From: a virus
IMG/VR virus record: IMGVR_UViG_3300044720_000021
Span: 2,896 to 66,895 of that record
Strand: one strand, 5' to 3'
Length of the DNA stretch: 64,000 bases
Positions 1-64,000 of the stretch are shown in pieces; position 1 is the first letter of the stretch; every line of letters begins with the position of its first letter. The position numbers and the translations under genes are program-made. Under the pieces are notes generated by a model. It was not told the DNA's origin. It did not search any database and worked only from the letters and a program-made list of their open reading frames with translations.

Positions 1-900
1 GGAATCGAGTCAACGCCGCTCGTGCTCGGCGCGGCAAAGCAGATCAGCTTGACTGCCATCCCGCTCGGTGGCCCTGGGACGACGGCGAGGAAAATCTACC
101 GCTCGAAGGATGGCGGTGCCTACGCTCTCGTGACCACGCTCGCCAATAACGTGACAGTGGTTTTCACTGACAACGTGGCGGCTCCGGTCGGAGATCCCCC
201 GTCTGTCGGCACCGCAGAGCGTGTGACGGTGGCCGGCGAGGCTGAGGAGTCTGGAACGGCATACAACGCAATCATCGGTTCGATCACAGAGCTCTCCGAT
301 GTTCCTGACGGAGTGACCGACGTGACCAACCCAACAGCATTTTCAGGCGGCGGGGATGACGAGGAGATGGAGGACTTCCGAGTCCGATTGCTCGACTTCC
401 TGCGCAACCCCAAGACGGGCTCGCCCTCCGACATGGAGGCATGGGCTGAGGAGATCGAGGGAGTCGATACCGCCACCGCGTTCAACAACGACAACAACGG
501 CGTTGCGACGAACGGACACATCACCATCCGCATCGCAGGCCCGGATGGATCGATTCCAGGATCCCCGGTGATTGATGCCGTGCTCGCGCACCTTCAGAGC
601 AAGGCGATCTCGGGCGTGACTGTCCACGTACACACCTTCACTCCGGTGAGCACCGCTGTCACGGTGACAATCACTTTGGAGTCGGGTTACGTGCTCGCAG
701 ACGTGACGCCGGCAGTGCAGGATGCGATCGAGGACTACATCAACAACGTTCCGGTGGGCGGCACCGTCTACATGGCAGGACTGATCGATGCTGTGTTCGG
801 ACTCCCCGGAGTGAAAACCGTCGTGCTCAACACCCCCGCAACCGATCAGACGGCAACCGCTACGCAGAAGCGGACTCCTGGCGTCATCACGGTGAACTAG
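1..900 (+). CDS. Baseplate J-like protein (5' truncated)
   Basis: Frame open from base 1; GGGDDEEMEDFRVRLLDFLRNP..GSPSD..AWA motif typical of baseplate J; position before wedge and fibre genes. Confidence 0.85.
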   Translation, partial: GIESTPLVLGAAKQISLTAIPLGGPGTTARKIYRSKDGGAYALVTTLANNVTVVFTDNVAAPVGDPPSVGTAERVTVAGEAEESGTAYNAIIGSITELSDVPDGVTDVTNPTAFSGGGDDEEMEDFRVRLLDFLRNPKTGSPSDMEAWAEEIEGVDTATAFNNDNNGVATNGHITIRIAGPDGSIPGSPVIDAVLAHLQSKAISGVTVHVHTFTPVSTAVTVTITLESGYVLADVTPAVQDAIEDYINNVPVGGTVYMAGLIDAVFGLPGVKTVVLNTPATDQTATATQKRTPGVITVN

Positions 901-901
901 T

Positions 902-2161
902 ATGGCGCAGCCTGCACTCCCCGCTGAGGGTACATACGGCGAGATCGAACAGAATTTCATCGAGAACTCGCCGCCTGGGCTCTGGCCTGACAATCAGGAC
1001 TCCAACTTCGGTCAGCTTCGCAAGGTGCTCCTGGAACCGCTTCAGGAGTGTAGTGACAAGCTGACGGTTCTCGACTTGGAGATGTACGCAGCGACGGCTG
1101 AAATATATCTGTCGCTGTGGGAGCAGGAGTTGAACCTGCCCATCGCACCCACAGGCAAGACTCCGCAGAACCGGCGGGACGTGATCGCATCGAAGTTGGT
1201 CTATGGGCCGTTCACGAGGACGAGACTCAATGCGCTGATCGAGTCTTTCATCGTGACGACATTCGGCTCTGCCGCTTCGCTGACGCCGGAAGGGCTCGCT
1301 CTCGATGCTGGCGGCATCCCCCTCTTTTCAGGGGTGTCGTCGTTGGCCGATGCCTACCGAATCTACGAGGACATCAGAAACTACAGCTTCGAGCTCTGGA
1401 TCAAGAGCGCCGTCACACCGGACATGTCCTCTCTGACGCGAGAGCTCACGCGGATCGTTCCGGGTGGGCACAGCTACACGATCGACAACACCAAAACCAA
1501 TGTGCTCGATTACGCACGGACAGTTCGCAACAAGCAACCGAACGCGTTTTTCAGGCTCGGGCCTGACGCAAACGACACGTCGGGCTATGCAAATCACGGC
1601 ACGCTCAACGGCACCCATGCTCTCGTCTCCTCTCCGGGCCTGCTCGCGCACACAGACGTGGCAGGTGCCAACGGGGCTCGGGACTTCGATGGCGCGAGCG
1701 GCTATGTCTCGGTGCCCGACGCTCCTCAGCTTGATCTCGGTGATCACCTGACAATCGAGTTCTTGGCGCGGCCGGATGCAATCGGCGCGGTGATGCGGGT
1801 GGTGGATAAGGGAGCGAATGCCTACTCCGTCTACATCAACGCAACAGGGGCCGTCGTGTTCGAGCAGAAGGGCGTCGGCACCATTGCTGCGTCAACGATC
1901 AACCTCGTGGCCGGCACGATCTACTACGTCGAGGTCAAGAAGTCCGGGCCTCTAGTGAAAATCCTAATCGACGACGTTGACAGAACCGGCACGGTCGTGA
2001 ACAGGACGCTGGTGGATACAGCAACGGCTCTGAACATCGGACGTAACGTCTCAGGTGGAGAGTTTTTCAACGGCGCGCTCGATGAAGTAGCTCTCTACGA
2101 TCTGCGTCTGACGGCTGACGAGAGCACAAGCAACTACAAGACCGCCAAGAACATCGCCTGA
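902..2161 (+). CDS. Baseplate wedge subunit (Mu gp48/YmfQ-like N-terminus) fused to a LamG/ConA-like domain
   Basis: LWEQELNLP..RRDVIASKL at N-terminus; FDGASGYV..LTIEF..FNGALDEVALYDLRL at C-terminus. Confidence 0.7.
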   Translation: MAQPALPAEGTYGEIEQNFIENSPPGLWPDNQDSNFGQLRKVLLEPLQECSDKLTVLDLEMYAATAEIYLSLWEQELNLPIAPTGKTPQNRRDVIASKLVYGPFTRTRLNALIESFIVTTFGSAASLTPEGLALDAGGIPLFSGVSSLADAYRIYEDIRNYSFELWIKSAVTPDMSSLTRELTRIVPGGHSYTIDNTKTNVLDYARTVRNKQPNAFFRLGPDANDTSGYANHGTLNGTHALVSSPGLLAHTDVAGANGARDFDGASGYVSVPDAPQLDLGDHLTIEFLARPDAIGAVMRVVDKGANAYSVYINATGAVVFEQKGVGTIAASTINLVAGTIYYVEVKKSGPLVKILIDDVDRTGTVVNRTLVDTATALNIGRNVSGGEFFNGALDEVALYDLRLTADESTSNYKTAKNIA

Positions 2162-2173
2162 AAGGGGTGAAAA

Positions 2174-3181
2174 TTGATTAGGTACAAGTCATTCGAGGCT
2201 ACCGGAATCGCCCCCAACGGCAAGCTGTATGCGGGCGACCTGAATGGAATTCAGGACGCGGCAGCCGCACTGGCGGACTTCACGCAGCAGATCGATCTCG
2301 GCACACTCAGAATCGGTGAGGCCGGACTGACACTCTCGAAGTTCGGCACGGCAGAGGCGCAACTTGCAGGCCATCTGCGTGTGACGAAAATCCTTCGAGG
2401 ATTGGAAGGGATCATCCCCGGTGCCTTCACGACCACGCAGAGGGATGCCATCGCTGCGGGTGGTGCTCCCTACGGCCTCGGGATCATCAACACGACCAAG
2501 AACAAGTGGGAGTGGAACACGGGCTCAGACGGAGCTCGCGTGTGGGCACCGTTCGGAATCGACTCAGGTGTTGGCACCCTCGCGTTGCGACCGGCTGCAA
2601 ACGCAGTCACTCCGGGCTCGATCTACTTCGCGACCGATCAGGTGGTTGAGTACGTCAGCGACGGATCCTCTTGGTTCCGCAAGGGGTTGCCGGCGGGTGC
2701 AACGTGCGCATGGTTCGGCGCAGCGGCTCCAACAGGATGGGTGAAATACGACGGCACCAACCTCCCATCGTCCACGGGCATCTACGCAGACCTTGCGACA
2801 CATCTGGGTGGCGTTGCGACAGTGGACACACAGGGTCGAACGATCTTCGGGCAGGGGACGCACGCCGACGTTGACACGGTGAAAACCGACAACGATGGCT
2901 TGGCCGTAGGTTTGCGTCGTCCGAAGCACAAGACGAGCATCACCGACCCTGGCCATCGGACGGACTTCGAGTATTCGGACAGCGGAGTGACCTTCACGGG
3001 CCTCACCAACCGTCCCCGAATTGCTTGGAGCACGGCGTCGGACGTGAACAACCTTCTCGGTACGATCCCGGAATCCGATCGAGCGGCTACCCTGACCGGG
3101 ATCACGGCTGGCCCACAGACCGGAAACGAGCCCACAGACACGGTGCCGTACACCGTGGGGCTCTTTATCGCAAAGCTGTAA
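2174..3181 (+). CDS. Tail fibre protein with tail-collar domain
   Basis: PAGATCAWFGAAAPTGWVKYDG..DTQGRTIFG collar motif; follows baseplate genes. Confidence 0.75.
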   Translation: MIRYKSFEATGIAPNGKLYAGDLNGIQDAAAALADFTQQIDLGTLRIGEAGLTLSKFGTAEAQLAGHLRVTKILRGLEGIIPGAFTTTQRDAIAAGGAPYGLGIINTTKNKWEWNTGSDGARVWAPFGIDSGVGTLALRPAANAVTPGSIYFATDQVVEYVSDGSSWFRKGLPAGATCAWFGAAAPTGWVKYDGTNLPSSTGIYADLATHLGGVATVDTQGRTIFGQGTHADVDTVKTDNDGLAVGLRRPKHKTSITDPGHRTDFEYSDSGVTFTGLTNRPRIAWSTASDVNNLLGTIPESDRAATLTGITAGPQTGNEPTDTVPYTVGLFIAKL

Positions 3182-3203
3182 GTGAAAAAAGGAGGGCGGG
3201 AAC

Positions 3204-3443
3204 ATGGCACAGCAAATGAACATGAATCAAGCGCTCGTCGTACTTGGCGAGTTCGCACTGAAAAACCGGCTACTCGAAGATCAACTCGAATCGACAGAGG
3301 AGACGCTGCTTGCAAAGACTCTGGAATTCGAAACAGAGAAGGAGAAGGCCGAAGCACTGGCAAGTGAAAAGCGCATTCTGCTTGCAGACATAGCGGAACA
3401 GCGCGAGGAGATTGAAAATCTGAAAGGAGGGCGGGAAACATGA
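3204..3443 (+). CDS. Small coiled-coil protein (possible fibre chaperone)
   Basis: GGAGGG RBS; heptad-like Glu/Leu pattern. Confidence 0.5.
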   Translation: MAQQMNMNQALVVLGEFALKNRLLEDQLESTEETLLAKTLEFETEKEKAEALASEKRILLADIAEQREEIENLKGGRET

Positions 3444-4066
3444 GCGTCACCAAAGCAGAGTTCCGATGGCGGGTGTGGGTTCTAGGGGAGGGCGAGTTCG
3501 CGGCCAAAGGGCCACGCTCGAAGCCACGCCCGGATTTCGGTTTCGGCGGCAAGGGGCAGAAGCCTGTGCCTAAGCCGTGGTTCAAGAGGTTGGGGGAGTT
3601 CGTTGCCAAGCGCGAGAAGGACTTCGAGCCCAAGCCCGAGGCTCCTCCCAAGGACGATCCACTGAAAAGACCGGGCATGATCTCGGAGCACTTCAACGTG
3701 CGCGAGTTCGACTGCCACGACGGCAGGAGGGTGCCCAAGGCTGCCGAGCCCGCTCTTGTCAGACTCGCGGTGCAGTTCCTCGAACCGATGCGGAAGAAGT
3801 TCGGGCCTGCGCGGGTGCTCTCGGGCTATCGGCACAAGGCGTACAACCGCAGCATTGGCGGTGCGCTTTTCAGTCAGCACGACTATGACGACGATCCCAC
3901 GACGGTCGCTGCGGATCTGACCTTCGCGAAGGGCTCGCCGGCACAGTGGGCGGCTGAAGCGAGGCGGCTCTCTGACCGACTTGGCTTCGGCGGTGTGGGC
4001 GAGTACCGCAACTCGGGCTTCGTCCACATGGACAACCGCCGTTACAAGGCTCGTTGGAGCGGCTGA
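3440..4066 (+). CDS. Endolysin, peptidase M15A family
   Basis: SEHFNVREFDCHDG, SGYR..YNRSIGGA..SQH, GFVHMDNR zinc-peptidase motifs. Confidence 0.85.
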   Translation: MSVTKAEFRWRVWVLGEGEFAAKGPRSKPRPDFGFGGKGQKPVPKPWFKRLGEFVAKREKDFEPKPEAPPKDDPLKRPGMISEHFNVREFDCHDGRRVPKAAEPALVRLAVQFLEPMRKKFGPARVLSGYRHKAYNRSIGGALFSQHDYDDDPTTVAADLTFAKGSPAQWAAEARRLSDRLGFGGVGEYRNSGFVHMDNRRYKARWSG

Positions 4067-4071
4067 TTTTC

Positions 4072-4353
4072 ATGGACTTCCTTATTGGGGCGGCGGCAGA
4101 GATCCAGTGGATCGACACGATCCTCCGGGGCGGGTTTGCCGCCGCCCTCCTCTACGTCTTGTGGGGAGGTCACAAGGGGTGGTGGGTGTATGGGAAGGAT
4201 CATCGAGCAGCACTAGCTGAAAAAGACAGGCAACTTGCCGACCTGGAAATGCGGCACGACAGGTTGCGGGATGAAAAAGACGCCTGGATGCAGACGGCGT
4301 TGAAATCGGCTGGCGTAGCCTTCGCGTTGACCGAAGGAAAGGGCCAACAGTGA
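4072..4353 (+). CDS. Holin-like membrane protein with C-terminal coiled coil
   Basis: Hydrophobic GGFAAALLYVLWGG segment directly after endolysin. Confidence 0.55.
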   Translation: MDFLIGAAAEIQWIDTILRGGFAAALLYVLWGGHKGWWVYGKDHRAALAEKDRQLADLEMRHDRLRDEKDAWMQTALKSAGVAFALTEGKGQQ

Positions 4354-4544
4354 AAATTCTTGATCGCTTGCGGCGGCGAGAAGAAAGGAACGCAGTGGAA
4401 GATGGACATGTCAAGAAGGACGAGCTCGACATGCGTGTCGAGGAGGAAAAACGCACTCGGCGAAAGTTGAATGCGCGGCTGAACTCCATCGAAATCGAGT
4501 ACGGGCTCGACATCAAACCCACGAAACTGAAGGAAGTGAATTAG
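4350..4544 (+). CDS. Small charged hypothetical protein
   Basis: GTGA overlap with upstream stop; RBS. Confidence 0.5.
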   Translation: MKILDRLRRREERNAVEDGHVKKDELDMRVEEEKRTRRKLNARLNSIEIEYGLDIKPTKLKEVN

Positions 4545-4985
4545 GTGAAAATGCTCGGCGCTCTACTGACCAACACCATTGCTGTGCCTGAGCTCCTGTG
4601 GACGATATTCTGTTCGTTTGCGCTCTACTACGCAGTGCGTGTGACGCGGCGGGCGCGTCGAGCATTGCAGGCACTTCGTGAGGCAGGCATCAACTCCAAT
4701 CGCGAGTATGCGGCCATCACGACCATCTTGTTCTATGCCACAGTGTCATTTGTTCTTTTCATGTTCACCTTCATCGGCATAGCGGTGATGTTCGTTCCAT
4801 CCTCGAACGACCGGATCCAACCGATCACTTGGTTGGTCACGGGAGTTTTCATTGCAGGTGCAGCGGCTCTGGCGTTGGCGCTCTACATGAACGAGCGCCG
4901 GCGCGAGGGGCTGGAAAAGCGCATCGAGAAACATCTCCTTGACGCAGACGCAAAAGATCACCCTCTACGACGCAATGGCGATTGA
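4545..4985 (+). CDS. Membrane protein, about 3 TM segments (holin candidate)
   Basis: Three hydrophobic stretches; lysis cassette. Confidence 0.55.
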   Translation: MKMLGALLTNTIAVPELLWTIFCSFALYYAVRVTRRARRALQALREAGINSNREYAAITTILFYATVSFVLFMFTFIGIAVMFVPSSNDRIQPITWLVTGVFIAGAAALALALYMNERRREGLEKRIEKHLLDADAKDHPLRRNGD

Positions 4986-5201
4986 ATGGGCGGGGCACTG
5001 CTTTGGCGCAGGGTTCATGGCTGGCTGACAATCGCTTGGGCAATTCAGTTCTCTCTTGCATTCTGGATTTTCTCTGACCTACAACGAAGCGTTCCGTACT
5101 TGGTTGGCATCAGCATCGCAGCCGCGCTGCTCGGGGAAATGTCCTCGTGGCACGCAGTACGGGTCGAAGTGAAAATGGAGGAAAGGGGTGGTAGGGATTG
5201 A
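4986..5201 (+). CDS. Small 2-TM membrane protein
   Basis: WLTIAWAIQFSLAFWIF and VPYLVGISIAAALL segments. Confidence 0.5.
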   Translation: MGGALLWRRVHGWLTIAWAIQFSLAFWIFSDLQRSVPYLVGISIAAALLGEMSSWHAVRVEVKMEERGGRD

Positions 5202-5263
5202 CAACTAGCTACGCAGCCTGAAAGGGCGGGCTGTGCCTAGTCAGCTATTAAGGAGTTTTCTAA

Positions 5264-5806
5264 GTGAAAAAACTGCTCGTACTAACCCTCGCCGCCGCCG
5301 TGCTCGGAGGCGGCGTCGGGACATCAGCAGATGCAGCAAGTGAAAACCTGAGATACCCCGACAACAACGCATGGATCAAGCTATGGACAAAACGAGATCA
5401 GAGCATCTACTCCTCGATCAAAGTGGCCGCGAATATTTTCAGGGTCAGCGAATCGACCTTGCGTGCGGTCAACGGAGGCGAAGGAGGCAACGTCCACCCG
5501 GCCAAACTTCGGGTGACAATCTGCAACCCGTCGGCTTACGGCGGGATCGGCTGGAACACGCAAGGCTCTGCCGCGTTTGGGCCGTTCCAGTTCATGCTCG
5601 ACTACCGAGGCGCTTGCAACCGGCAGAAAGCCTGGGGCACCTTCGGTTCATACGACGACGCGGCTTTTCAGGAAGCAAAGCGACAAGGCATCTCGGTGCC
5701 GTATCGGTTCAAGCATCCTGCGTCGAACGTCGGGCAAGCACTTACCGCCGCCTACATGATCTCACGCGGCGGGCTGTACGTCCATTGGTGCGCATCCATG
5801 TGCTAG
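5264..5806 (+). CDS. Secreted lysozyme-fold lytic transglycosylase (SLT/Rpf-like)
   Basis: Signal peptide MKKLLVLTLAAAVL..ADA; LRAVNGGEGG (candidate catalytic Glu), AFGPFQF, GQALTAAYMI..HW. Confidence 0.65.
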   Translation: MKKLLVLTLAAAVLGGGVGTSADAASENLRYPDNNAWIKLWTKRDQSIYSSIKVAANIFRVSESTLRAVNGGEGGNVHPAKLRVTICNPSAYGGIGWNTQGSAAFGPFQFMLDYRGACNRQKAWGTFGSYDDAAFQEAKRQGISVPYRFKHPASNVGQALTAAYMISRGGLYVHWCASMC

Positions 5807-5810
5807 GAGG

Positions 5811-6101
5811 ATGAAAATGCCAACACAAAACACCTTGTCCACTCCCGACATCACACCGATCCAGAAACTCGTTGCTGCGGTCGGTGGACTGCTCGTGTCG
5901 GGAATGCTCCTCGTCAACGCGTTCGACATCTACGACATCAGTGGAGAACAGAGCGCGGCAGTCGTCGGCTTCTGGACGACCATTGGTTCAGTCGTAGTGG
6001 TCGCAGACGCGGTGATTCGCAATGGGCGCGCTCGTGCTCTAGCCGCGAATCCTCCCGCGCAGGCCGTGGACAAGGCAGGCGAGGCAACGATCGCGGGCTG
6101 A
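5811..6101 (+). CDS. Holin-like 2-TM protein
   Basis: Two hydrophobic helices, RNGRAR basic tail, end of lysis cassette. Confidence 0.6.
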   Translation: MKMPTQNTLSTPDITPIQKLVAAVGGLLVSGMLLVNAFDIYDISGEQSAAVVGFWTTIGSVVVVADAVIRNGRARALAANPPAQAVDKAGEATIAG

Positions 6102-6117
6102 GAGCTCGCCACAAGGT

Positions 6118-6161
6118 CGGACGGGGCTGAACCGTGCCCGCCCTCGGGGAAGCCCCGTCCG
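6118..6161 (+). terminator. GC-rich hairpin ending the lysis operon
   Basis: CGGACGGGGC / GCCCCGTCCG 10-bp stem; no U-tract. Confidence 0.45.
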
Positions 6162-6199
6162 GCAACAACAGTAGCGTAGGAGGGCTCTCACGAGTCCGC

Positions 6200-6228
6200 T
6201 TGACGCCGGCTCAGGAGGGCGCTACAGT
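6200..6228 (+). promoter_or_regulatory. Sigma70/SigA-type promoter of the replication operon
   Basis: TTGACG-17 nt-TACAGT. Confidence 0.7.
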
Positions 6229-6326
6229 CCCCGATCTGAGTGACGATCAGGTGCAGGGGAGGGGCTACGGCCTCTCCCCGCTTCTTCTGATCGCGCCGCA
6301 CCCGAACCGTCAACGAAAGGATTTTC

Positions 6327-6626
6327 ATGAGCGAGCAGTTGGCAGAGAGAACTTCGCGTCGTCGCGGGGGTGAAAACAAGTCGCGCCCGAGGTCTGCTTA
6401 TGACGCCGCACTGATCCAGGCAAAGATCGATGGCTCGTGCGTGGATCTCGTTCTTGCCGCTGACTTCGCGACACCCCTCGGAGGACTCCTCGACGCGGAC
6501 AAGACCATCGAGGCGAAGGTTTGTCACGTTGACACCTACGCCGTCGAGTTCGAAGTCATGGGAGCGAACGAAGGAAAAAAAGTTTGGATCAACAAAGGAT
6601 TCATTGCAGGGGTGTGGGTGCGATGA
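6327..6626 (+). CDS. Hfq/Sm-fold-like protein
   Basis: By-eye alignment to Hfq Sm1 and Sm2 motifs (see findings). Confidence 0.55.
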   Translation: [99 protein letters not shown]

Positions 6627-6841
6627 AAATTCGAGTTCGTCCTCTGGGTGTTAGATCACCTGTGATTCGCAAGATCTCTCTGCGAAGATTTTTTGGTTCT
6701 CTTTTCGGAAACCCCACCCCCCTTCCCGTAGGGAAGGAAGGGGCTCCTAGGGGTGAGAGTGTGAGAGAGGGGCGCGCGGAAATCATTCAGCACCCGAGAT
6801 TCGGGCCGATCATCGTGAAGTGGCCGGTGGCTGGCCAATGA
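6623..6841 (+). CDS. Small basic hypothetical protein
   Basis: ATGA overlaps at both ends. Confidence 0.5.
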   Translation: MKIRVRPLGVRSPVIRKISLRRFFGSLFGNPTPLPVGKEGAPRGESVREGRAEIIQHPRFGPIIVKWPVAGQ

Positions 6842-8196
6842 GTGTTGAAGCCCTAGTCGTCACCGCAATCGTGCAAGAGGGAGCTCAGGGGCTCCGCAAG
6901 GTCTACCAGGAGGGAATTTCATCCGATGACTTCTTGGTCTACGAGGAGGAGTTCGCCTGGATCGAGGAGCGTGTTGCTTCGAGGCAGCCGCTCAACGGAA
7001 GGATTTTCAAGGGCAAATTTGACGAGTTCGAGTGGTTGCCGCCGAACGAGAACCTGAAGGATCTGCTCGCTGAACTGAAAAAGGAACGCGCGTTCACCGA
7101 ACTTACTCAGCTTGTCAACACGCTGGCTGACGAGCTCGACATCGACAATGCGCTCTCCAAGGCTGAGTTCGCGCGTGACAGGGTGGCTGAGATCACAAGA
7201 CTGCACGCGCCGGCATCCGACCATCTCCTGATCGCCGGGTGGCGCGACCACTTGGAGGAACAGAAGCATCTGCGGACTCTGCGACGGGGTGGTGCTCCTC
7301 CTGGGATCCCGACAGGACTGGCCAACATCGATTTTCATTGGGACGGGCTAGTACCCGGCCGGATGATCGTCGTGCTCGGGCGACCGGGTGAGGGCAAGTC
7401 CTACCTGACGGCGCAGTTCGCCAAAGAAGCAATCCTTCAGCACTATCGTGTTCTGTTTTTCAGTCCTGAGATGAACAGGCGGGAGCATCTGTGCCGGCTG
7501 CACACGCTCCTGTCGGCGGACTCACGAGTGAAGGAAGCCCTCGGGCTGAAGCATTCGTTCCGCAACAGGGCATTGATGAACGGGATGGGCTACAACATGA
7601 AAAGCTATTCCCGATTCATGAAGCACTTGGAGGAGAACTACGGCGAGATCATCCTGATGACAAACACGCATCGACGGCGGAAGATGTCACCTGCGTTCAT
7701 CGAGGCGAAGATCGAGGACGTGAGGCCCGATCTCGTGATCATTGATCCGATCTACAAGCTGTCCGCTGTCCGGCCGCGTCAGAGCCGAGTCGAGGAACTG
7801 TCGGAGATCTCGGACTCGATCCAGGATCTTGCCGAGGCGTTCAGCATCCCGGTCGTGGTGACAAACCAAGCCCACCGGCAGGCGACGGGCAAGGACGACG
7901 CACCGCACAAGGACTCCTCGTTCAACTCGGACGTGCCGGTGCAGGAAGCAGATCATGTCATCGGAGTGAAAAACAAGAGCGACGAGAACCTGTTGCTGTG
8001 TCGTTGCTCGAAGTCGCGCTTCGGTGCGGATTTTCGTTTCGAGTCGCAGTTCTATCCCAACACCGGAGTGCTGCGAGAGCTCACGCAACCTGAAGGCAGC
8101 TACTACAACGGCAGTGACGATCCCGACGAGGACGAGTTGCGGGAGATCGTCGGCAATGCAACACGAGCGACCCAGGAGGTCGAAGCAGATGACTGA
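6838..8196 (+). CDS. dnaB: DnaB-like replicative helicase
   Basis: GIPTG..D; Walker A GRPGEGKS; Walker B LVIIDPIY; PVVVTNQAHR; KSRFG. Confidence 0.9.
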   Translation: MSVEALVVTAIVQEGAQGLRKVYQEGISSDDFLVYEEEFAWIEERVASRQPLNGRIFKGKFDEFEWLPPNENLKDLLAELKKERAFTELTQLVNTLADELDIDNALSKAEFARDRVAEITRLHAPASDHLLIAGWRDHLEEQKHLRTLRRGGAPPGIPTGLANIDFHWDGLVPGRMIVVLGRPGEGKSYLTAQFAKEAILQHYRVLFFSPEMNRREHLCRLHTLLSADSRVKEALGLKHSFRNRALMNGMGYNMKSYSRFMKHLEENYGEIILMTNTHRRRKMSPAFIEAKIEDVRPDLVIIDPIYKLSAVRPRQSRVEELSEISDSIQDLAEAFSIPVVVTNQAHRQATGKDDAPHKDSSFNSDVPVQEADHVIGVKNKSDENLLLCRCSKSRFGADFRFESQFYPNTGVLRELTQPEGSYYNGSDDPDEDELREIVGNATRATQEVEADD

Positions 8197-8464
8197 TGAA
8201 AAGATCAGCGTGTCGGCGCACGAGCGCAACAAGCCGCTGAAGTCGAAGCCGCCGCAAACGCGGGATGAAAAGATTCCGCACTCGCAGTTCTCGGATCCAC
8301 AGCAGCGAGTGGCCAAGGGAGTGAAAATCCTCTCGAAGTCCGAGAAGAACGACGGCACCAACATCGAGTCGAAGTCGCGGGGCGGCACGCTCGAAACCAC
8401 CGTCACGCTTGGTCGCGGTGACACAGAGCCTCTGGACGCTGATGGGCGGCGGCAGCACTCGTGA
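8189..8464 (+). CDS. Hypothetical protein
   Basis: GGAGG RBS, overlap with dnaB stop. Confidence 0.5.
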   Translation: MTDEKISVSAHERNKPLKSKPPQTRDEKIPHSQFSDPQQRVAKGVKILSKSEKNDGTNIESKSRGGTLETTVTLGRGDTEPLDADGRRQHS

Positions 8465-8631
8465 GCGAGCTCGAAGATGGAATTCCCGAGCCAACTCGTG
8501 AGGAGATCGAAAAGCACATTCACGCTGAGGCTGAAAAGTCGCTTCAGACGATGGTGCGTCATGCGTTGATTCGATTGACGCCCGATCAAGTGATCGAGGT
8601 TGTCACCAAGGAGGCGAGACTGCGTGGATGA
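8461..8631 (+). CDS. Small hypothetical protein (56 aa, not in ORF track)
   Basis: GTG start overlapping upstream stop; MSELEDGIPEPTREEIEKH.. Confidence 0.45.
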   Translation: MSELEDGIPEPTREEIEKHIHAEAEKSLQTMVRHALIRLTPDQVIEVVTKEARLRG

Positions 8632-9061
8632 AATTGTCAGCAAGATCTCCGACGAGGAGCGCAAGCGGCTGGCAGCGGAACATCGTGCAAAGGTCGCGTC
8701 CGGTGAAATCGACATCGGCCCGAAGCCGCATCACGAGCCCACTGACCCGAGCATTCGTGCAGACCGCAGGGATCCCCAGGCAATCGGTGAAAAGCTGATG
8801 GAGATTCGACGGGCGACCATGCCGGCGACGAACGGGAACGCCAACGGTGCTGCCTACGCAGGGGTAGGGCCGAGTCTCAGCGCGCTTGCTGACGAGCACA
8901 TGTCGGCGCTTCTGGCCGTGCCTGACGTGTCTCACAATGAAACCACGGTCGTTGGGACGGCACGGGCCTATCGTCAGGAGTTGGAGGAGCGTGCCGCCAA
9001 AGGTGACAAGTTCGCCATCTCGATGCTGACGACAGGTCAGCCCGGTGATTCAGACTCGTGA
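8624..9061 (+). CDS. Hypothetical protein
   Basis: AAGGAGG RBS before GTG; coding-like codon usage. Confidence 0.55.
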   Translation: MDEIVSKISDEERKRLAAEHRAKVASGEIDIGPKPHHEPTDPSIRADRRDPQAIGEKLMEIRRATMPATNGNANGAAYAGVGPSLSALADEHMSALLAVPDVSHNETTVVGTARAYRQELEERAAKGDKFAISMLTTGQPGDSDS

Positions 9062-9185
9062 CGGTCAGTGAAAAGATCCGAGGAGTTCTGATGCCTTGGC
9101 GTTGGGCTCGTCGGTGCGCGTGCCACAGCAATATTTGGCCGTGCCAATACATTGACCGACCGAATGACAATCACGGTAGCGGACG

Positions 9186-10232
9186 ATGATCTACCGAGGG
9201 CGGGATCTCAATGCTGTCGCGCTGTGGGAGCAGTGGTGCGACTTTCCTCCGAATTTCACCGGGGATGGTGGTGGCTTCTCACCGCTGGTCATCTGCCCCA
9301 ACCCAGAGCACAACACAGACAAGCGACATTTTCAGGTCAACCTGGACAAGCCGCTTGTTCACTGCTTTGCATCATGCGGAATTTCAGGGACATACGAGCG
9401 GGCCATCTCGATCATCACAGGATGCTCAGAACGAGAGGCCCGTAAGGAGCTCCTGAAACACGCTCGCGTCGGCCTCGGCCCGAGGTCAAAGCGAAAAGGA
9501 CGCACGCCGGACGGACAAGTCAAGAGGTTGCAGGATGAAATTCCAGCACCCTCGCTCGACTATGAGCGGTACATACCGCAAGCCGGCATGAATTACCTTT
9601 CTGCCCGAGGGGTCGGGGCCGACGAGATCGTGAAGTGGGAGATCGGATGGGATCCTGCCGAGAGACGGATTGTCATTCCGGCCCACGATGACAGGGGGAT
9701 CGTCCGGTTCTTGATCAAGCGGGCAGTGAGCCCGAAGGACTTCCCCAAGTACCTCTACTGGCCCGAAAAAGCCCTCTGTGGGTGGGGAAAGACAGATATT
9801 CTCTACGGTGCTTGCAGATTCGACCTGAAGCGCGTATCATCTTTTGGGCTCGTGCTCGTGGAGGGGAGCCTAGACACGGCGAGGATCGATTCCTTCGGTT
9901 TTCCGGCAGGAGGGATCCTGGGAACAGGGCTCAGTGAAAAGCAGAGAGGAGTGATCAATAGAACTAGACCCAAGCGGATTTTCCTTATGTTCGACAAGGA
10001 CGCGGCGGGCGTCCAGAACATCTGGAAGGCAGAGGCGATGCTTCCAAAGCTACCGCTGTTCGTCTGCTTGTATCCCAAAGGAAAATCCGATCCTCAAGAA
10101 TTGACCCAAGAGGAGGCGGAATACTCCATTGAAAATGCACTGTCGTTGGTCAGATTCAAACGAAGGCTCCCGAAACGTCAAGCGAGAAGGAAGGTGACGC
10201 ATGGCACAGCCCACAGTCAGACGCGTTCGTAG
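9186..10232 (+). CDS. dnaG: DNA primase (zinc-binding domain plus TOPRIM)
   Basis: CPNPEH..HCFASCG zinc finger; LVEGSLD and MFDKDAAG TOPRIM motifs. Confidence 0.9.
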   Translation: MIYRGRDLNAVALWEQWCDFPPNFTGDGGGFSPLVICPNPEHNTDKRHFQVNLDKPLVHCFASCGISGTYERAISIITGCSEREARKELLKHARVGLGPRSKRKGRTPDGQVKRLQDEIPAPSLDYERYIPQAGMNYLSARGVGADEIVKWEIGWDPAERRIVIPAHDDRGIVRFLIKRAVSPKDFPKYLYWPEKALCGWGKTDILYGACRFDLKRVSSFGLVLVEGSLDTARIDSFGFPAGGILGTGLSEKQRGVINRTRPKRIFLMFDKDAAGVQNIWKAEAMLPKLPLFVCLYPKGKSDPQELTQEEAEYSIENALSLVRFKRRLPKRQARRKVTHGTAHSQTRS

Positions 10233-11454
10233 CGTCGAAGATCGAAACGCCGGTCGTGGTCAGTTCATCACGCTGAAACAGACGAACGATCAGTTCGTTG
10301 GGTTCGCGCTTTTCAAGCCCGACCCCGAGCTCGATGACAACCCCGGCTATTTCGAATACTTCGAGCACTACACGCCAGCCACGGGGTACTTCCCGTGCAT
10401 CGGAGACGACTGCCCTCTCTGCGCGGAGGGTGACAATCCTTCCACGCGGGCAAAGACTCTCTGGCTGGTGCCGAACGACAACAAGGAAATGGATGCCGAC
10501 GACGCGATCGTGAAGGTTTTCACGATGAACTGGTCGGTGATCCAGGAGTTCGCAGATCTTCATGCGGACGACGAGACGATCCTCAGTCGCGCGTTCCGCA
10601 TCAAGCGGCTCGAAGGGAATGGGAAGTATGCGGTGCGTCCCAAGCCTGAAAAGCTGAAGGCTCCGCAGGTCAAGGCCGCGTTGAAGGACGCACCGGATCT
10701 CGAACAGCTTGCGACCAAGCAGGCCGCTCGCGTGATGGAAGATCTCGACACGGCCGAGGCGATGGAGGCCGACGAGGACAAGGCCGAGGAGAAGGCCACG
10801 GCGAAGCAGTCGTCCACGTCCAAGGCGAAGAAGGGCAAGCCCGCAGAGGAGCCGGAGCCCGAGACGGGTGAGGACTTCGACCCGGAGGAGGCCAAGGAGT
10901 TCGCCGGGGAAGTCACGGTGAAAAAGCTGAACAAGTCCAAGCTGATCCTCACCGTCGAGACAGGGGACGTGTCGTTCGACGTGTACCTGATCGAAGGCGG
11001 CGACTTCGACATCGAGGACTACAACAAGGACGACACGCTGTATATCGAGGCTGCGAAGGACGAGGATGGCGATTTCATCGCCAGCGTGGTCACGAATGCA
11101 GAGGAGCCTGCCGAGGAGCCCGAGCCCGGTGACGAAGGTGACGAACCCGAACTGTTCGAGGGAGACGACTTCGACGGCAAGGTGACGGTCGTGTCGGTCA
11201 ACTCGGAGAACGACACGCTCACGGTGAAAACCGAGGACGACAAGACGTTCGAGCTCTACTTCCTCGGTGAAGGAGAGGACGAGGACGGGAACGACTGGTC
11301 GAACCTCGATCTCGATGACTTCTCGGAGGACGAGGAGATTGTCGTCGTTGCGGAAAGGGACGGTGAGGGCGACATGCTCGCGTCCAAGTTTCCCGCGAAG
11401 GCGAAGGGCAAGAAGGCAGCAGCCGGCGCGAAGAAAGCGTCCGGTCGCAAGTAG
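10201..11454 (+). CDS. Single-stranded DNA-binding protein with duplicated acidic C-terminal modules
   Basis: YFEH..YFPCIGDDCPLC..FRIKRLEG..Y resembles phage SSBs; follows primase. Confidence 0.6.
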   Translation: MAQPTVRRVRSVEDRNAGRGQFITLKQTNDQFVGFALFKPDPELDDNPGYFEYFEHYTPATGYFPCIGDDCPLCAEGDNPSTRAKTLWLVPNDNKEMDADDAIVKVFTMNWSVIQEFADLHADDETILSRAFRIKRLEGNGKYAVRPKPEKLKAPQVKAALKDAPDLEQLATKQAARVMEDLDTAEAMEADEDKAEEKATAKQSSTSKAKKGKPAEEPEPETGEDFDPEEAKEFAGEVTVKKLNKSKLILTVETGDVSFDVYLIEGGDFDIEDYNKDDTLYIEAAKDEDGDFIASVVTNAEEPAEEPEPGDEGDEPELFEGDDFDGKVTVVSVNSENDTLTVKTEDDKTFELYFLGEGEDEDGNDWSNLDLDDFSEDEEIVVVAERDGEGDMLASKFPAKAKGKKAAAGAKKASGRK

Positions 11455-12597: not shown

Positions 12598-13071
12598 GTG
12601 AAAATGGAGACAGTGACACAGGCACAGCTTCTCAGAGGCACGCTCGACATCATGGAGGACGATCTTCGGATCACGTCGAAGCAGGCGAATGACTTCGTGT
12701 CGTCGTTGCGTGCGGTAGTCGAGGAGCAGGTGGAGTTCGGGAACAAGGTCAACCTGCTTGGGCTCGGTATTTTCACTCCGGTTGGCGTTCTTGCCAAGCC
12801 GAAGCGGAAAGGCGTCAAGCCGCAGACTGGCGAGGAAGTTGTCTACCCGGCGAAGCCCGCGTCCGTGAAGCTGAAGTTCGGCATCGCCAAGCGCGTCAGG
12901 GAGGCTCTGCCGGCCACGACGAGTAGCGCAGGCAAGTCTCTCCTCTCTACGGCCAAGCAGCGGGCAGAGGCAGCCGCAGAGCGTCGGGCAAAGCGCGAGG
13001 AGGAGGAAGCCAAGGCGGCACGCAAGGCCGAGCGCGATGCGAAGAAGGCGGCGGGCGGGAAGAAGAAGTGA
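12598..13071 (+). CDS. hup: HU/IHF-family DNA-binding protein with Ala/Lys/Glu-rich tail
   Basis: GNKVNLLGLGIF..KRKGVKPQTGEEVVYPAK..KF HU signature. Confidence 0.85.
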   Translation: MKMETVTQAQLLRGTLDIMEDDLRITSKQANDFVSSLRAVVEEQVEFGNKVNLLGLGIFTPVGVLAKPKRKGVKPQTGEEVVYPAKPASVKLKFGIAKRVREALPATTSSAGKSLLSTAKQRAEAAAERRAKREEEEAKAARKAERDAKKAAGGKKK

Positions 13072-21219: not shown

Positions 21220-21253
21220 TCCCTGGAATCGTCACTGACAGGGGAGGTAACTG

Positions 21254-29168: not shown

Positions 29169-29176
29169 CAAGCCAC

Positions 29177-59358: not shown

Positions 59359-59960
59359 GCACATACAACCCTGACAATCACGTCACGACGATGTTCCGTG
59401 CGCTGCGTGCGTACATGGAAACGCTTTTCACTTCCGATCTCTACACCTTGATCGATTCCTTCCCTGAGCCCGACGAGATGCAGACACGGATGCCTCTTGA
59501 AAAGACTTTGGTTCATATAGACATCGACAACATCGAGCCCATCGTGTTCGGACTCGGTGACAATCTCGTGGACGCTCTCTACGACAACGGAGCAGGAACC
59601 GTCGAGGAATGGGAGGCTCGTTGCCATGAAGTAACGTTCGACATCGGCGTGTGGGCTAGCGCTGAAACGGGTGGAGTGACGGCCCGGATGGAGGCGCGAG
59701 AGTTGCTTGACAAGCTGTTCGTCGGATCCACGGCGTATGAGGCTTGTCAGACAACGACGGATGGCGTCGAGATCCTTGGCTTTTCAGGGGGACAGAACAT
59801 CATCGATACTGTTGGTGACGTGAAGGTTTTCAGGACGATCGGACTCGAACTCGTCGTTCGGATCTTCTCGCGGATCCGCAGACCCGTCACTGAGTTCATC
59901 GACGTGATCGAACAAGATCCTCAGAACGTCATCGACGGCAATGTAACCATCACCGGATAG
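59355..59960 (+). CDS. Tail terminator/completion protein
   Basis: Acidic beta-rich protein just before sheath. Confidence 0.55.
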   Translation: MSTYNPDNHVTTMFRALRAYMETLFTSDLYTLIDSFPEPDEMQTRMPLEKTLVHIDIDNIEPIVFGLGDNLVDALYDNGAGTVEEWEARCHEVTFDIGVWASAETGGVTARMEARELLDKLFVGSTAYEACQTTTDGVEILGFSGGQNIIDTVGDVKVFRTIGLELVVRIFSRIRRPVTEFIDVIEQDPQNVIDGNVTITG

Positions 59961-59977
59961 AAAGAAGGGAGTGAAAA

Positions 59978-61102
59978 TTGTCTACGCAGCTTTACCCCGA
60001 AGTGAAGGATGCCACAACTCTCGGCGCTCGCTTTTCACAGCCGCTTTTCCTGCCCATCGGCGTCGAAGGCGCTAGTGCGGTAGGAGGCACGGCTGTCGAG
60101 GCAACGCTGTACGACGTGTCGCGGCCCGCAGATGCCGACACGTTGTTCGGAGCGGCGTCCTCACTGTCTACGTTGGTGAAATTCCTTCTTGGTCGGGGAG
60201 TCCCGACTGTGAAGGCAATCTCGTCCGAGACGGACGGCACGGCACCAACGCTCGTGGAACGTCAGGCGGCATGGGCTCTGCTCGAATCGGATCAGTCGAT
60301 CCGCCTTCGTCTGACCGACTCCGTGACGCAGGCGGATCTCGTCGCGCTCGCGGACTCTGCCGAGTGGGCAGAGGGGATCCAGAACAAGCAGGTGGCGATC
60401 ATGGGCATGGCGGCTGCAACAGCGTCGGCCGGATTGATCACCGCCGCAGGAGCGATCCTGTCGAAGCGGGGAGTGCTCGTTGCTCCTGGCTTCTACGATG
60501 AAAATGGTGTTCTTCGTGGTGGCAACTATCTCGCAGCCGCAATCGCGGCCGAGGTTGCGAAGAACAGCGATTTGGGCGACGATCTCGACACCCTCGCGCT
60601 CGCTGGCTTCACCGGGGTCGAGAAGGACGCGAACGGGATGCCGCTGTTCCGCATCAAGGCCGGCGCAGGCACCCCGATCAACGACTTCGAGACTCTGCTC
60701 GTCGGTGGCGTGAGCCCCGTCCGGGCAGGGCGGAACGGTGGAGTCGAGATCACCCATCTGCGGACGACGTGGACGACAGATGCCACGTTCGACTCGCTGA
60801 TGACGCGTCTCATTGTCGATCAAATTTTCATCGACGTGAGGAACTACTGCGAAGCACAGAACTTCCTTCGCAGGGGCAACACGCAGAAGAACCGCGACGA
60901 CTTGAAAGCTGGCGTCGAGGCGCTTCTGAATGAGCGCTCGAACTGGATCAAGCCGCTGGTGCAGCCGGACAATACGTTCGGCTACTCGGTCGCGATTATC
61001 CCCTCGGGCGACAACCGATCGGTGACAATCAGCTACAAGGGCGAAGTCGTGCGTGGGATCCAGACGATCCTCGTTGCCCCTGAGCTCGTCATCGCAGCGT
61101 AG
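59978..61102 (+). CDS. Contractile tail sheath protein
   Basis: LLVGGVSPV..ITHLRTT..LMTRLIVDQI..RGNTQKNRDDLKAGVEALL. Confidence 0.8.
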   Translation: MSTQLYPEVKDATTLGARFSQPLFLPIGVEGASAVGGTAVEATLYDVSRPADADTLFGAASSLSTLVKFLLGRGVPTVKAISSETDGTAPTLVERQAAWALLESDQSIRLRLTDSVTQADLVALADSAEWAEGIQNKQVAIMGMAAATASAGLITAAGAILSKRGVLVAPGFYDENGVLRGGNYLAAAIAAEVAKNSDLGDDLDTLALAGFTGVEKDANGMPLFRIKAGAGTPINDFETLLVGGVSPVRAGRNGGVEITHLRTTWTTDATFDSLMTRLIVDQIFIDVRNYCEAQNFLRRGNTQKNRDDLKAGVEALLNERSNWIKPLVQPDNTFGYSVAIIPSGDNRSVTISYKGEVVRGIQTILVAPELVIAA

Positions 61103-62405: not shown

Positions 62406-62665
62406 ACGACGAGGAGCGTAGAGATCGAGTTCACCTGCATTGTGAACATGAACTTGAAATCACGCGCTGCGAGGTCTGCCACGAGCCCGTGAACGTGGAG
62501 GCCAAGAAGGAGATGCTTGAAAAGTACGCGGACAACATCTACCGACCGGGCGAGGAGATAGACGAGTTGGAGAAGTTGACCGAGGAACAGATGACAGACA
62601 GGCGACGAGAGATCGAGTCTCTTTTCAGTGACCCAAGCGGCATCCTGGTGAGTGAAGGAGAGTAG
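62279..62665 (+). CDS. Frameshift extension of tail chaperone (GT product)
   Basis: -1 frame relative to 61854-62405; ends at TMP start. Confidence 0.65.
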   Translation: MEENRLERAIWKVMGVGKGAAFGTFADLTDGQICWIFLNYEVDDEERRDRVHLHCEHELEITRCEVCHEPVNVEAKKEMLEKYADNIYRPGEEIDELEKLTEEQMTDRRREIESLFSDPSGILVSEGE

Positions 62666-64000
62666 TGAGTCAGTCGAACTACAGAATGAACTTGGTCTGG
62701 ACGAGCCACGGAGAACAACTCCGGGGAGATCTCGACCGGATTGTCAGTCATCTCACAGGCGTCGAGAACGCGGCGCAGCGTGTCGCGCGTACCGGATCTC
62801 GTCTCGGATGGTGGGGGCAGGAGCTCAAAGCCATCGGGACGACGATCCGGTACGCGTTCGCCGGCTCCATCGTCTACGGGCTTGTCACCGCGACTGACTC
62901 GCTCGCGCAGTTCAACAACCGGCTCGGTGAAGTCGATGGACTCGCGGCCAAAGTCGTCGGCGGCAATCTCGTGGGGCTCGGCAAGGAGCTCAACGACGTG
63001 GGCGACTTCGCGCTTCAGACGAGCAACAAGTTCGGACTCGCTGCCGATGGGATCAGCCAGTTCATCACCAAGTTCTTTTCATCGAACCTCCCAGGTGGCA
63101 TTGCGCAGATGCGCGGCTTCGTGGAGGAGATGGCCCGGATGCAGCTTGTGCTCGGCGGTGAGGTCGGAGATCCGCAGGCGCTTGCAGGTGGCGTGGCTGG
63201 CATGTTGCACGCAACGGGTACTCAGGCGAACCCAACAAAGGGTGCGCGACGCATGGGCAACATCTTCGCGGAGCTCACGCGATTGTCACCGGGCTTGACC
63301 GGCGTGGACATCACCCGAGACATCGGCCGACTGTCCGGCGCGGCAACGGCCATGCGAATGACGCCCGAGGAGATTTTCGCTGTGTACGGCACAGCGTCTA
63401 TGGCTGGTGGCTCAACTCCGGTGATTGGACGCGGCGTGGCGCAGCTTCTCACGTCGTCGCTGCTCAACCCGAAGTCGAAGGATCAGAGGGCGGCGTTCCT
63501 GCAAATGGGACTGCCGACCGATCCGAACGCGTTGCGTGCAAAGGGTGGCTGGAATGTCCTTCAGCAGATGATGCGAGCGACGGGTGGTTCGAGCATCACG
63601 TCAGCGCAGCGGCAGTCGCTTCTGAACATCGAAGATCCAGCGGAGGCGTTGTCGCAAGCTGGAATTTCAGGCCCGAACGTCAGCCTCTTGACCAAGGCTG
63701 TCGGTCGCATCGAATCTGTCCGTCAGCTTCTCAACATCTCGGCTGTCGGAGGAACGGAGGCGCTTGACAAATTCAGGGAAAGCCTTCTCACGGCCACCCG
63801 TGAAAATCGCGCAGCGCAGAGAGAGAAGCTGATTCAAGATCGGCGTGCTCTGACGCTGGCGGCGAACGCACAGAAAAACCTTCAGCTTCAGGTGGTGCGG
63901 TCAATCGAACCTCTCCTCAATCCTGTCGCTCGTGGGCTGAAGCGAATTTCGGATTGGTCGGTCGGGCAAGACCCGAAAGCGACGGGTGCTGTGATTGCCG
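62665..64000 (+). CDS. Tape measure protein (3' truncated, not in ORF track)
   Basis: GTG at 62665; frame open where checked to window end; Ala/Gly-rich helical. Confidence 0.8.
   Translation, partial: MSQSNYRMNLVWTSHGEQLRGDLDRIVSHLTGVENAAQRVARTGSRLGWWGQELKAIGTTIRYAFAGSIVYGLVTATDSLAQFNNRLGEVDGLAAKVVGGNLVGLGKELNDVGDFALQTSNKFGLAADGISQFITKFFSSNLPGGIAQMRGFVEEMARMQLVLGGEVGDPQALAGGVAGMLHATGTQANPTKGARRMGNIFAELTRLSPGLTGVDITRDIGRLSGAATAMRMTPEEIFAVYGTASMAGGSTPVIGRGVAQLLTSSLLNPKSKDQRAAFLQMGLPTDPNALRAKGGWNVLQQMMRATGGSSITSAQRQSLLNIEDPAEALSQAGISGPNVSLLTKAVGRIESVRQLLNISAVGGTEALDKFRESLLTATRENRAAQREKLIQDRRALTLAANAQKNLQLQVVRSIEPLLNPVARGLKRISDWSVGQDPKATGAVIA

Follow-up and report, generated by a model that had tools for sequence, protein, structure and literature searches.

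A hexamer repeated throughout a phage genome

The DNA considered here is a stretch of 64,000 nucleotides (hereafter the window), which corresponds to bases 2896–66895 of a single 69,205-bp contig, IMG/VR record IMGVR_UViG_3300044720_000021, obtained from a soil metagenome and belonging to an uncultured phage. Its source is a tailed phage: a gpA-type large terminase (44945–46654) and a portal (47228–48814) are present, together with tail and baseplate genes, among the 105 gene calls made for the analysis, which cover 87% of the genome and lie nearly all on the plus strand. The feature under study is a short word, TGAAAA, which is found in both orientations over the whole window (1–64000) with the consensus V-TGAAAA-K-C, accompanied over the same range and in both orientations by a weaker second form, TGACAA(TC). 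The window holds 190 TGAAAA and 112 TTTTCA (302 copies), as well as 58 TGACAA and 48 TTGTCA (106 copies), with a mean spacing of 212 bp for TGAAAA alone and of 159 bp when both forms are pooled. For the entire genome, the counts are 198, 124, 61 and 52, respectively; the 113 copies of the second form represent a 3.7-fold excess, and its extended version TGACAATC is present 52 times. A model-made first-pass annotation of the window had drawn attention to this word from hand counts over bases 1–10000, which were near exact: the figures are 29 TGAAAA, 16 TTTTCA (not 15), 12 TGACAA and 6 TTGTCA (not 3). Its GC content of about 62% has to be lowered to the 58.6% measured for the window.

The TGAAAA/TTTTCA pair ranks first among the over-represented hexamers in all the models tried. 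With independent and identically distributed letters, about 10 TGAAAA and 5 TTTTCA are expected in the window, which corresponds to an observed excess of 10- to 20-fold. A third-order Markov model predicts 43 and 29 in the genome (a four- to fivefold excess), and the 322 genomic copies of the pair compare with about 33 under a second-order model and about 72 under the third-order one. When synonymous codons are permuted within genes, 32 ± 5 sense and 14 ± 4 antisense copies are expected, against 159 and 103 observed, and a shuffle preserving both the proteins and the dinucleotides yields 60 ± 6 and 39 ± 4.5. The enrichment over the shuffle of protein plus codon usage amounts to five- to sevenfold. 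For the second form, 52 TGACAA and 37 TTGTCA are observed where 15 and 11 are expected by synonymous-codon permutation. A null preserving amino acids and codon context, which had been named as a check in the first-pass annotation, leaves the enrichment in place. Same-letter permutations of TGAAAA are 2 to 300 times rarer, its one-base neighbours are depleted (TCAAAA 0.12-fold, TGAAGA 0.17-fold, TGGAAA 0.35-fold), and 62% of the AAAA runs sit within TGAAAA. On the flanks, K-C is favoured on the 3′ side and T is disfavoured on the 5′ side. The TGAAAA/TGACAA word is a selected DNA-level signal.

Inside genes, the sense copies of TGAAAA are shared between two reading frames (77 and 81, the third frame being a stop codon), and the antisense copies between all three (19, 63 and 21). 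A further 61 of the 322 copies lie outside or at the edges of the gene calls, and the density is slightly higher outside genes. The word is also met at gene starts: all 13 of the starts previously listed read (A/G)TGAAAA, and 18 of the 105 gene calls open in this manner. Seven of these 13 (4545, 5811, 11536, 12598, 17049, 30475 and 61854) read (A/G)TGAAAATG; in these cases the second ATG may be the real start, with the word placed just before it, and the assignment is uncertain by two codons. Two inverted pairs that had been noticed early were found again, namely the TGACAATC palindrome at 29178–29194 and the pair TGAAAAT-8-ATTTTCA at 33385–33406, which belongs to a 763-bp non-coding stretch (33352–34114) with seven copies. 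A larger non-coding hub of 1.56 kb, located between divergent gene blocks (35639–37199), carries 12 copies, or 7.7 per kb, which exceeds the genome mean of 6.3 only slightly.

Spacing and orientation of the copies

The gaps between TGAAAA copies are more regular than random placement would produce. Their coefficient of variation (CV) is 0.66, compared to about 1.0 for a Poisson process and to a median of 0.97 for twenty other frequent hexamers; the largest gap is 725 bp where about 1,360 bp would be expected, and only three gaps are shorter than 30 bp where about 42 would be. The protein sequences permit the word, by synonymous choice, at 390 coding positions, of which 245 (63%) are occupied, compared to about 12% by codon shuffle. 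Random choice among these permitted positions gives a CV of 0.95 ± 0.045, with a minimum of 0.81 in 2,000 trials, which places the observed value at a z of about −6. Against this null, the largest gap is again short (725 versus about 1280 bp) and gaps below 40 bp are scarce (9 versus 50).

The occupancy of a permitted position depends on its distance to the nearest copy. It is 3–6% below 20 bp, 22% at 20–40 bp and 54% at 40–60 bp, then reaches 71–76% between 60 and 200 bp and 86% between 200 and 400 bp, and all five of the positions farther than 400 bp are filled. The TGACAA positions respond alike to neighbouring TGAAAA copies, their occupancy rising from 10% to 55% with distance. The control words GATCGA and AAGCTG show a flat occupancy, and some rise is seen for GAGCTC, which has few short-range positions. 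The pair correlation tells the same story, being close to 0 below 10 bp, 0.2–0.3 at 10–30 bp and 0.45–0.8 at 30–60 bp, and flat at 1 beyond. Neither helical phasing nor a preferred longer-range spacing was detected, since the pair correlation remains flat past 80 bp without periodic peaks. A copy is placed at nearly every position that the proteins permit, unless another one lies within about 60 bp; closer than this, a copy adds nothing and is not kept.

Both orientations of the word do equal work. The orientation labels follow each other randomly along the genome (161 runs, versus 153 ± 8), no orientation switch is seen, and the regularity measured on a single strand is what randomly thinning the joint set would give, neither strand being more regular. 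When the minus-strand copies are shifted against the plus-strand ones, the CV increases from 0.66 to 0.83 ± 0.035 (z −4.8). The same cross-strand shift test gives z values of −4.8, −8.4, −6.4 and −6.4 in four genomes, this one included. Same-strand, convergent and divergent pairs are equally depleted below 60 bp. A nick-avoidance model, in which harm would come from neighbouring sites facing each other on the two strands, was considered and rejected because same-strand pairs are excluded as strongly. This equivalence of the two orientations implies either recognition on duplex DNA or a process able to use either strand. The GC skew itself is positive in 30 of 32 bins, its cumulative curve rising almost without interruption.

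Dialects among relatives and the host question

No close relative was found in a cultured-phage collection, either by DNA or by the DnaE, portal, RuvC-like and 29241 proteins, and a single-protein scan of IMG/VR for relatives gave no matches. Alignment of the portal recovered 79 IMG/VR loci plus further contigs, from which eight complete or near-complete relatives and three fragments (11 genomes) were compared with the studied genome, labelled G000. In two relatives with about 60% protein identity, the word is retained at 73% and 60% of the sites where the overlapped amino acids are identical, whereas the relative's codon usage predicts 7–8% and the figure for any hexamer over identical amino acids is 33%. 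Where the amino acids differ, retention is 20%. TGAAAA faces TGACAA in the same aligned column in 9–10 cases.

Hyper-frequent words of the TG..A(A/T) type were found in 10 of the 11 related genomes and in most of about 55 loci of at least 8 kb, the exceptions being low-GC records such as fragment G008p and loci L003 and L053; fragment G004p has only a weak TGTAAT(T). The favoured spelling changes from one relative to another. TGACAA dominates in G002 and contig G001c84 (426 and 369 copies, versus 162 and 224 TGAAAA), G006 uses the 7-mer TGCCAAG (347 copies in 72 kb) plus TGACAAG, and G007, G009 and G010 use TGAAAT(T) plus TGTAAT and TGGAAT. TGAAAAC and TGAAATT are both enriched in G011, where TGAAAA alone lacks regular spacing (CV 1.0). 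The IMG/VR record of G011, which lies behind locus L083, has no match to DnaE, RecA or the 19190 resolvase candidate, and keeps the primase, the RuvC-like protein and the lysine-rich protein. Neighbouring dialects are one base apart and two forms usually co-exist in a genome, which is the pattern expected if a reader of relaxed specificity and its sites drift together.

The spacing rule accompanies these dialects. In G002, G001c84 and G006, the two forms taken together have a CV of 0.62–0.65 and are more regular than either one alone, the occupancy–distance curve drawn with their own words is the same as in G000, and the cross-strand z values range from −6.4 to −8.4. Regular spacing is weaker in G009 than in these three. 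Site densities vary among genomes from 4.7 to 9.2 per kb, with a constant scale of about 60 bp. The initial proposal of a DNA-level address under selection, recurring about every 170 bp, is thus strongly supported, with an interval of about 160–210 bp: the word is strand-blind and saturating, it is surrounded by a redundancy zone of about 60 bp, it is conserved between orthologues and it changes dialect among relatives.

It had been proposed at the outset that the same bias in a host chromosome would turn the word into a host-wide compositional signal. The only candidate host is provided by one relative of 70.8 kb, which is binned in an Acidobacteria metagenome-assembled genome (MAG), an assignment made by metagenomic binning. 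In 218 kb of the other contigs of this MAG, TGAAAA is found 65 times versus 66 expected, and TGACAA 26 times versus 41 expected. This corresponds to 0.30 and 0.12 copies per kb, compared to 3.2 and 5.2 in the binned phage contig, and the check reveals no enrichment. As far as can be told from these sequences, the word belongs to the phage lineage and not to the general composition of the host. Several restriction-type words are absent from the studied genome, namely CTCGAG (65 expected), GTCGAC (40), CACCTC/GAGGTG (62), CTCTTC/GAAGAG (44), GAAGAC (39), CTGCAG and CAGCTG, and others are nearly absent genome-wide, with a single CAGCTC (50 expected) and a single CTCATC (47). GAGCTC (80 versus 34) and AAGCTG/CAGCTT (103 versus 37), in contrast, are enriched. 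CACCTC is lacking from G000, G002 and G006 alike, and CAGCTC is present in 1, 0 and 1 copies, respectively; these commonly avoided words suggest that the three phages have similar hosts. Similar hosts combined with different dialects would support a phage-owned signal.

Candidate readers and possible functions

The initial observation is confirmed: the word amounts to a code under strong selection that belongs to the phage, tiles its genome irrespective of strand and differs in dialect between lineages. The densest site array of the genome lies on the plus strand at 29140–29209. It consists of five copies separated by gaps of 26, 12, 11 and 15 bp, it contains the palindrome TGACAATC-T-GATTGTCA at 29178–29194, and it is the only run in the genome of at least three copies with gaps below 30 bp. 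In the promoter of gene 29241, the array overlaps both the −35 box (TTGACA) and the spacer, and ends 37 bp upstream of the start codon. At the orthologous promoter of G006, four TGCCAAG/TGACAAG copies with gaps of 10, 11 and 17 bp, located 40 bp upstream, form the largest run of that genome. Two to four copies are found at the same promoter across L150, L151, L152 and G005, with two copies 11–13 bp apart in each of the three L loci. A tight array on the scale of the helical turn, written in the local dialect at the promoter of a basic protein whose expression is evidently high, is suggestive of what autoregulation by the reader would be expected to look like. In G002 (about 59949–60030) and G001c84 (about 7565–7646), the only tight run of at least three copies is found at the same place inside the TerL orthologue, and not at the promoter of the lysine-rich protein.

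Gene 29241 (29241–30158, plus strand), which has a consensus −35 box and a strong GGAGGAG ribosome site, encodes a lysine-rich protein of 305 amino acids. This protein comprises a short N-terminal helical segment, linkers rich in Lys, Ala, Pro and Thr, a helical core of about 100 residues and a basic tail. Orthologue matches were obtained in 9 of the 11 compared relatives, with none in fragment G004p, and the core is common to 183 cluster representatives. The helical core is predicted confidently (predicted local distance difference test, pLDDT, 84), but comparison of this core with the PDB gave no significant fold match (best Foldseek E 2.5; best VIA Z 6.3, below meaningfulness for helical domains), and the protein has no Pfam or PHROG family. 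Among the four candidates named early, it stays the best one, and it may tentatively be put forward as the reader.

The three other early candidates were set aside. The helix-turn-helix protein 44072 has an orthologue in no compared relative. The HU/IHF-like DNA-binding protein (12598–13071, plus strand; PF00216, E 7e-11), which ends with a Lys/Ala/Glu-rich tail, is not detected in G006, G009 and G011 although these genomes bear the motif, and could hardly be a universal reader. The region around 27615 corresponds to a MerR-like gene (27510–27887), which is conserved in relatives and is better explained by a separate promoter-spacer element. Its likely operator would be this different element, carried by the 17-bp spacer at three promoters. 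These promoters, at 21191–21220, 24715–24744 and 27884–27913, are of the sigma-70 type (TTGACA, 17-bp spacer, TAGACT or TAGGAT) with CCACC-N3-GGGTG in the spacer, and the third one directly follows the MerR-like gene. A simple pattern search for the CCACC-N3-GGGTG spacer element in relatives found none.

A rival reader is encoded at 24038–24718 on the plus strand. This protein of 226 amino acids has no Pfam or PHROG match, and its family profile does not match PDB sequences either, so that the fold search alone identified it as a RuvC-fold Holliday-junction resolvase. Its AlphaFold2 model has a pLDDT of 92 and its top 12 Foldseek matches are all RuvC (template-modelling score by target 0.69–0.77, probability 1.0). 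D26, E98/E99, D203 and D206 are invariant in 44 homologues, and the chain is about 55–70 residues longer than the matched bacterial RuvC chains. It was also found in fragment G003p and in each of the eight relatives that are complete or nearly so. Among non-structural genes, those found in all eight encode a helicase, the primase, the SSB-like protein, the Cas4-like exonuclease, this 226-residue protein, the SF2 helicase, the MerR-like protein and the lysine-rich 305-residue protein of 29241–30158.

It is quite conceivable, if somewhat short of probable, that the words are sites at which an abundant DNA-binding protein of the phage docks or nucleates. Such a phage-encoded protein would dock as a monomer-like unit on the asymmetric word of 6–7 bp and would occupy or organise about 50–60 bp, the whole array tiling the chromosome so as to coat it, to shield it or to organise it in the manner of chromatin. 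Duplex binding with a footprint or reach of this size would account at once for the fixed 60-bp scale, the saturation, the strand-blindness and the promoter array. The reader would co-evolve with its 300–600 or so sites, as suggested by the one-base drift of the word (TGAAAT, TGAAAA, TGACAA, TGCCAAG) and by the two forms per genome. The array at the 29241 promoter would fill only when free protein exceeds the genomic sites, and this feedback would match the protein supply to the genome copy number. Both the spacing law and this promoter array agree with the early idea of a protein coating, organising or shielding the genome. A RuvC-type resolvase or a site-specific modification would fit much the same evidence. 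An extended version, in which the word is a lineage-wide chromatin code positioning a new-fold lysine-rich protein and co-evolved dialects could separate self from competitor DNA, is more doubtful.

Several observations weigh against this docking model. In G002, G001c84, G007, G009, G010 and G011, the promoter array is weak or missing, and part of the array is just the −35 hexamer TTGACA, which contains TGACA. With the word definitions used, regular spacing is weak or absent in the lower-GC genomes G005, G007 and G010 and in G011. The modelled core of the 29241 protein displays no recognisable DNA-binding fold, and nothing links this core to the word. Dialect and phage phylogeny are confounded as regards the covariation of reader and word. 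The assignment of the MAG host rests on metagenomic binning, which is weak evidence. The strong avoidance of restriction sites means that shielding by a coat is not complete, at least at entry.

The word might instead be the preferred cleavage sequence of the RuvC-fold resolvase, a cleavable copy being kept within a short branch-migration distance of any junction. Since cutting one or the other pair of like strands resolves a junction, a word on either strand would serve, and junctions need removal before packaging. The D-E-D-D residues of the RuvC fold and the wide distribution of the protein speak for this possibility. Heavy recombination-dependent replication is also indicated by RecA (17909–18979), the Cas4-like PD-(D/E)XK exonuclease (19865–20845), the SF2 helicase (25610–27058), the HIRAN protein (28770–29168) and a second candidate junction-resolving enzyme (19190–19567, plus strand; PHROG 2002), located directly after RecA and a small open reading frame resembling endonuclease VII (18963–19190, between RecA and the 19190 gene). 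The known specificities of the RuvC family, however, are of 2–4 nucleotides, branch migration easily spans hundreds of bp, so that saturation down to about 60 bp exceeds what this function should require, and the tight array at the 29241 promoter is left unexplained. Cellular RuvC is described as cleaving cognate sequences only (PMC6736871), which supports a cleavage-site role, and viral resolvases as typically more promiscuous than the bacterial ones (PMC3864405), which counts against it. Overall, such a role looks unlikely. A site-specific DNA modification, in which the conserved T or G, or the A at position five, would carry a methyl group or something bulkier, is a little less likely still. 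Marks tiling the genome might block a host nuclease that needs an unmarked stretch, or label self for a phage nuclease destroying host DNA, and a mark read on duplex DNA agrees with the equivalence of both strands and with the distance-dependent benefit. The word is asymmetric, 6–7 bp long and fixed at T1, G2 and A5, with other positions varying among relatives, and the specificities of type IIS, IIG and III methyltransferases drift in a similar way. Against this stand the strong avoidance of restriction words, which implies that the DNA is not generally protected, and the lack of a modifying enzyme among the scanned proteins: no methyltransferase, glycosyltransferase, transglycosylase or hydroxymethylase was found among about 60 proteins scanned with Pfam and PHROGs or among the clade-conserved genes, many small open reading frames being unscanned or without family and several small conserved proteins being without assignment. 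To our knowledge, known modification motifs are not enriched in their carriers.

The strand-blind tiling argues against primase and Chi-like readings, both of which are very improbable. The phage has a DnaG-type primase, with Toprim and DnaG N-terminal core domains (9186–10232, plus strand) and orthologues in all seven of the relatives that are at least 90% complete. The word could be its start site, the template reading 5′-..NNCA-3′ with a cryptic 3′ A and the primer starting with pppG before copying four to five bases (GAAAA, GACAA, GCCAAG or GAAAT). The fixed TG end and the length of 5–7 nucleotides match the layout of phage primase sites such as those of T7 (GTC), T4 (GTT/GCT) and SP6 (GCA), where the 3′ nucleotide is cryptic and the primer starts with a purine. 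Priming is strand-specific, yet opposite-strand sites substitute for each other here (z −4.8 to −8.4), neither strand exceeds the regularity of a random thinning, and no orientation switch accompanies a GC skew that is positive in 30 of the 32 bins. Besides, one site per 110–215 bp is far denser than the known spacing of Okazaki initiation in phages. A host reader, be it a Chi-like attenuator of an end-processing nuclease, an uptake-type sequence or another mimicked self marker, is about as improbable. Chi is over-represented in some phages relying on host recombination (PMC3784561), and dialects could follow different hosts; but recognition of the Chi type depends on orientation, the word is 10–30 times as dense as known chromosomal signals, the candidate host shows no enrichment, and three genomes avoiding the same words differ in dialect. 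Finally, the word could be a by-product without function, reflecting amino-acid usage, a preference for certain codon pairs or a mutational bias. Apart from it, A-tracts are scarce in this GC-rich genome, and a tolerated A-rich word would stand out under simple nulls. This is hardly credible, given that the enrichment persists over shuffles in which the proteins, the codon usage and the dinucleotides are kept, that the word occupies two sense frames, three antisense frames and non-coding DNA, that compositional bias predicts neither distance-dependent occupancy nor regular spacing, and that close relatives differ in their word.

Comparison with known systems

No published description of the TGAAAA word or of evenly spaced phage hexamers was found in the literature. 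In form, the closest likeness is with the DNA uptake sequences (DUS) of Neisseriaceae and the uptake signal sequences (USS) of Pasteurellaceae, short over-represented words present in both orientations and inside genes, with lineage dialects and a dedicated receptor. The USS were reportedly described as evenly spaced by Karlin and colleagues in 1996. These words of 10–12 bp occur about once per kb in a bacterial chromosome and are read outside the cell by a pilin during transformation, whereas the phage word has 6–7 bp, 5–9 copies per kb, a redundancy zone of 60 bp and no uptake step. Both orientations, presence inside genes and lineage dialects are shared; the enrichment, however, is carried by a 69-kb phage and not by a competent bacterial chromosome, the candidate MAG being unenriched. 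DUS dialects co-evolve with ComP (PMC3630211, PMC3868556).

The stoperators of Cluster A mycobacteriophages follow a comparable logic, with an asymmetric word, a monomeric phage reader (here only proposed) and many sites over the genome. They are 13–14 bp long, with a few dozen in each genome, lie mostly between genes and point in the direction of the transcription which they block. The phage word differs from them by its 430–600 sites, mostly intragenic (158 sense and 103 antisense, with 61 of 322 outside or at gene edges), orientation-blind and saturating, and by the lack of a linked repressor-type gene. Stoperators and their reader co-evolve into specificity groups (PMC9283540, PMC6550527). 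Chi is likewise a short asymmetric word, over-represented where its recognition by a DNA-processing machine benefits the genome (PMC3784561). It is host-owned and acts in one orientation relative to the entering nuclease; here, the candidate host, assigned by binning, is unenriched, the orientation labels are random and opposite-strand sites substitute for each other instead of being selected independently.

An abundant phage protein thought to organise the whole viral chromosome, as proposed here, is known in phi29 (p6) and SPO1 (TF1). What these proteins recognise is the shape of the DNA or a modified base, not a discrete word, and their genomes are not known to carry a selected word array. 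No homology to p6 or TF1 was found, and the HU-like gene of this phage is not conserved in the clade. The primase sites of T7 (GTC), T4 (GTT/GCT) and SP6 (GCA) resemble the word as short template words with one fixed end, TG giving pppG beside a cryptic A. They differ in acting on a single strand and have not been reported as enriched or jointly spaced across strands, whereas cross-strand exclusion equals same-strand exclusion here. HIP1 and other highly iterated palindromes of cyanobacteria are also hyper-abundant short words running through genes, genome-wide. HIP1 is a palindromic octamer of a cellular genome, in contrast to the asymmetric, phage-borne word, which obeys a spacing law.

If this picture is true, a large phage lineage, not yet in culture, devotes a measurable share of its coding freedom, 63% of the synonymous opportunities, to one word. 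This word is placed largely through codons that the genome otherwise avoids, which implies a strong constraint on phage chromosomes. The curve of occupancy versus distance is a quantitative signature that can be searched in any genome for similar hidden codes, and the word allows the phages of this clade to be recognised easily in metagenomes. Depending on what the reader proves to be, its identification would lead to a new type of viral chromatin or shield of the genome, to a resolvase of unusual specificity or to a site-specific modification of a new kind. For host restriction, the word is also an obvious target, or weak point, which may explain why the dialect keeps moving.

The rest of the gene content can be summarised briefly. 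No integrase or CI-type repressor was found in the genome, nor any tRNA genes that could serve as a host clue. The replication genes include a DnaB-like helicase (6820–8196), the SSB-like protein (10201–11454) and DnaE (13705–17052). Among the eight complete or near-complete relatives, only G007 has no match to the HIRAN protein. Candidate counter-defence genes encode an ArdA-like protein (31030–31374, a weak match), a NADAR domain protein (40542–41099, E 1e-28) and a dual-specificity phosphatase-like protein (42221–42880), each with an orthologue in at most two of the compared relatives. The product of 23497–24048 strongly matches a PHROG annotated as DprA-like recombination mediator (E 2e-53) and, among the compared genomes, is found only here. 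A collagen-like protein with Gly-X-Y repeats (11536–12489; Pfam Collagen, E 1.5e-8) is encoded within the replication module and has orthologues only in G007 and G008.

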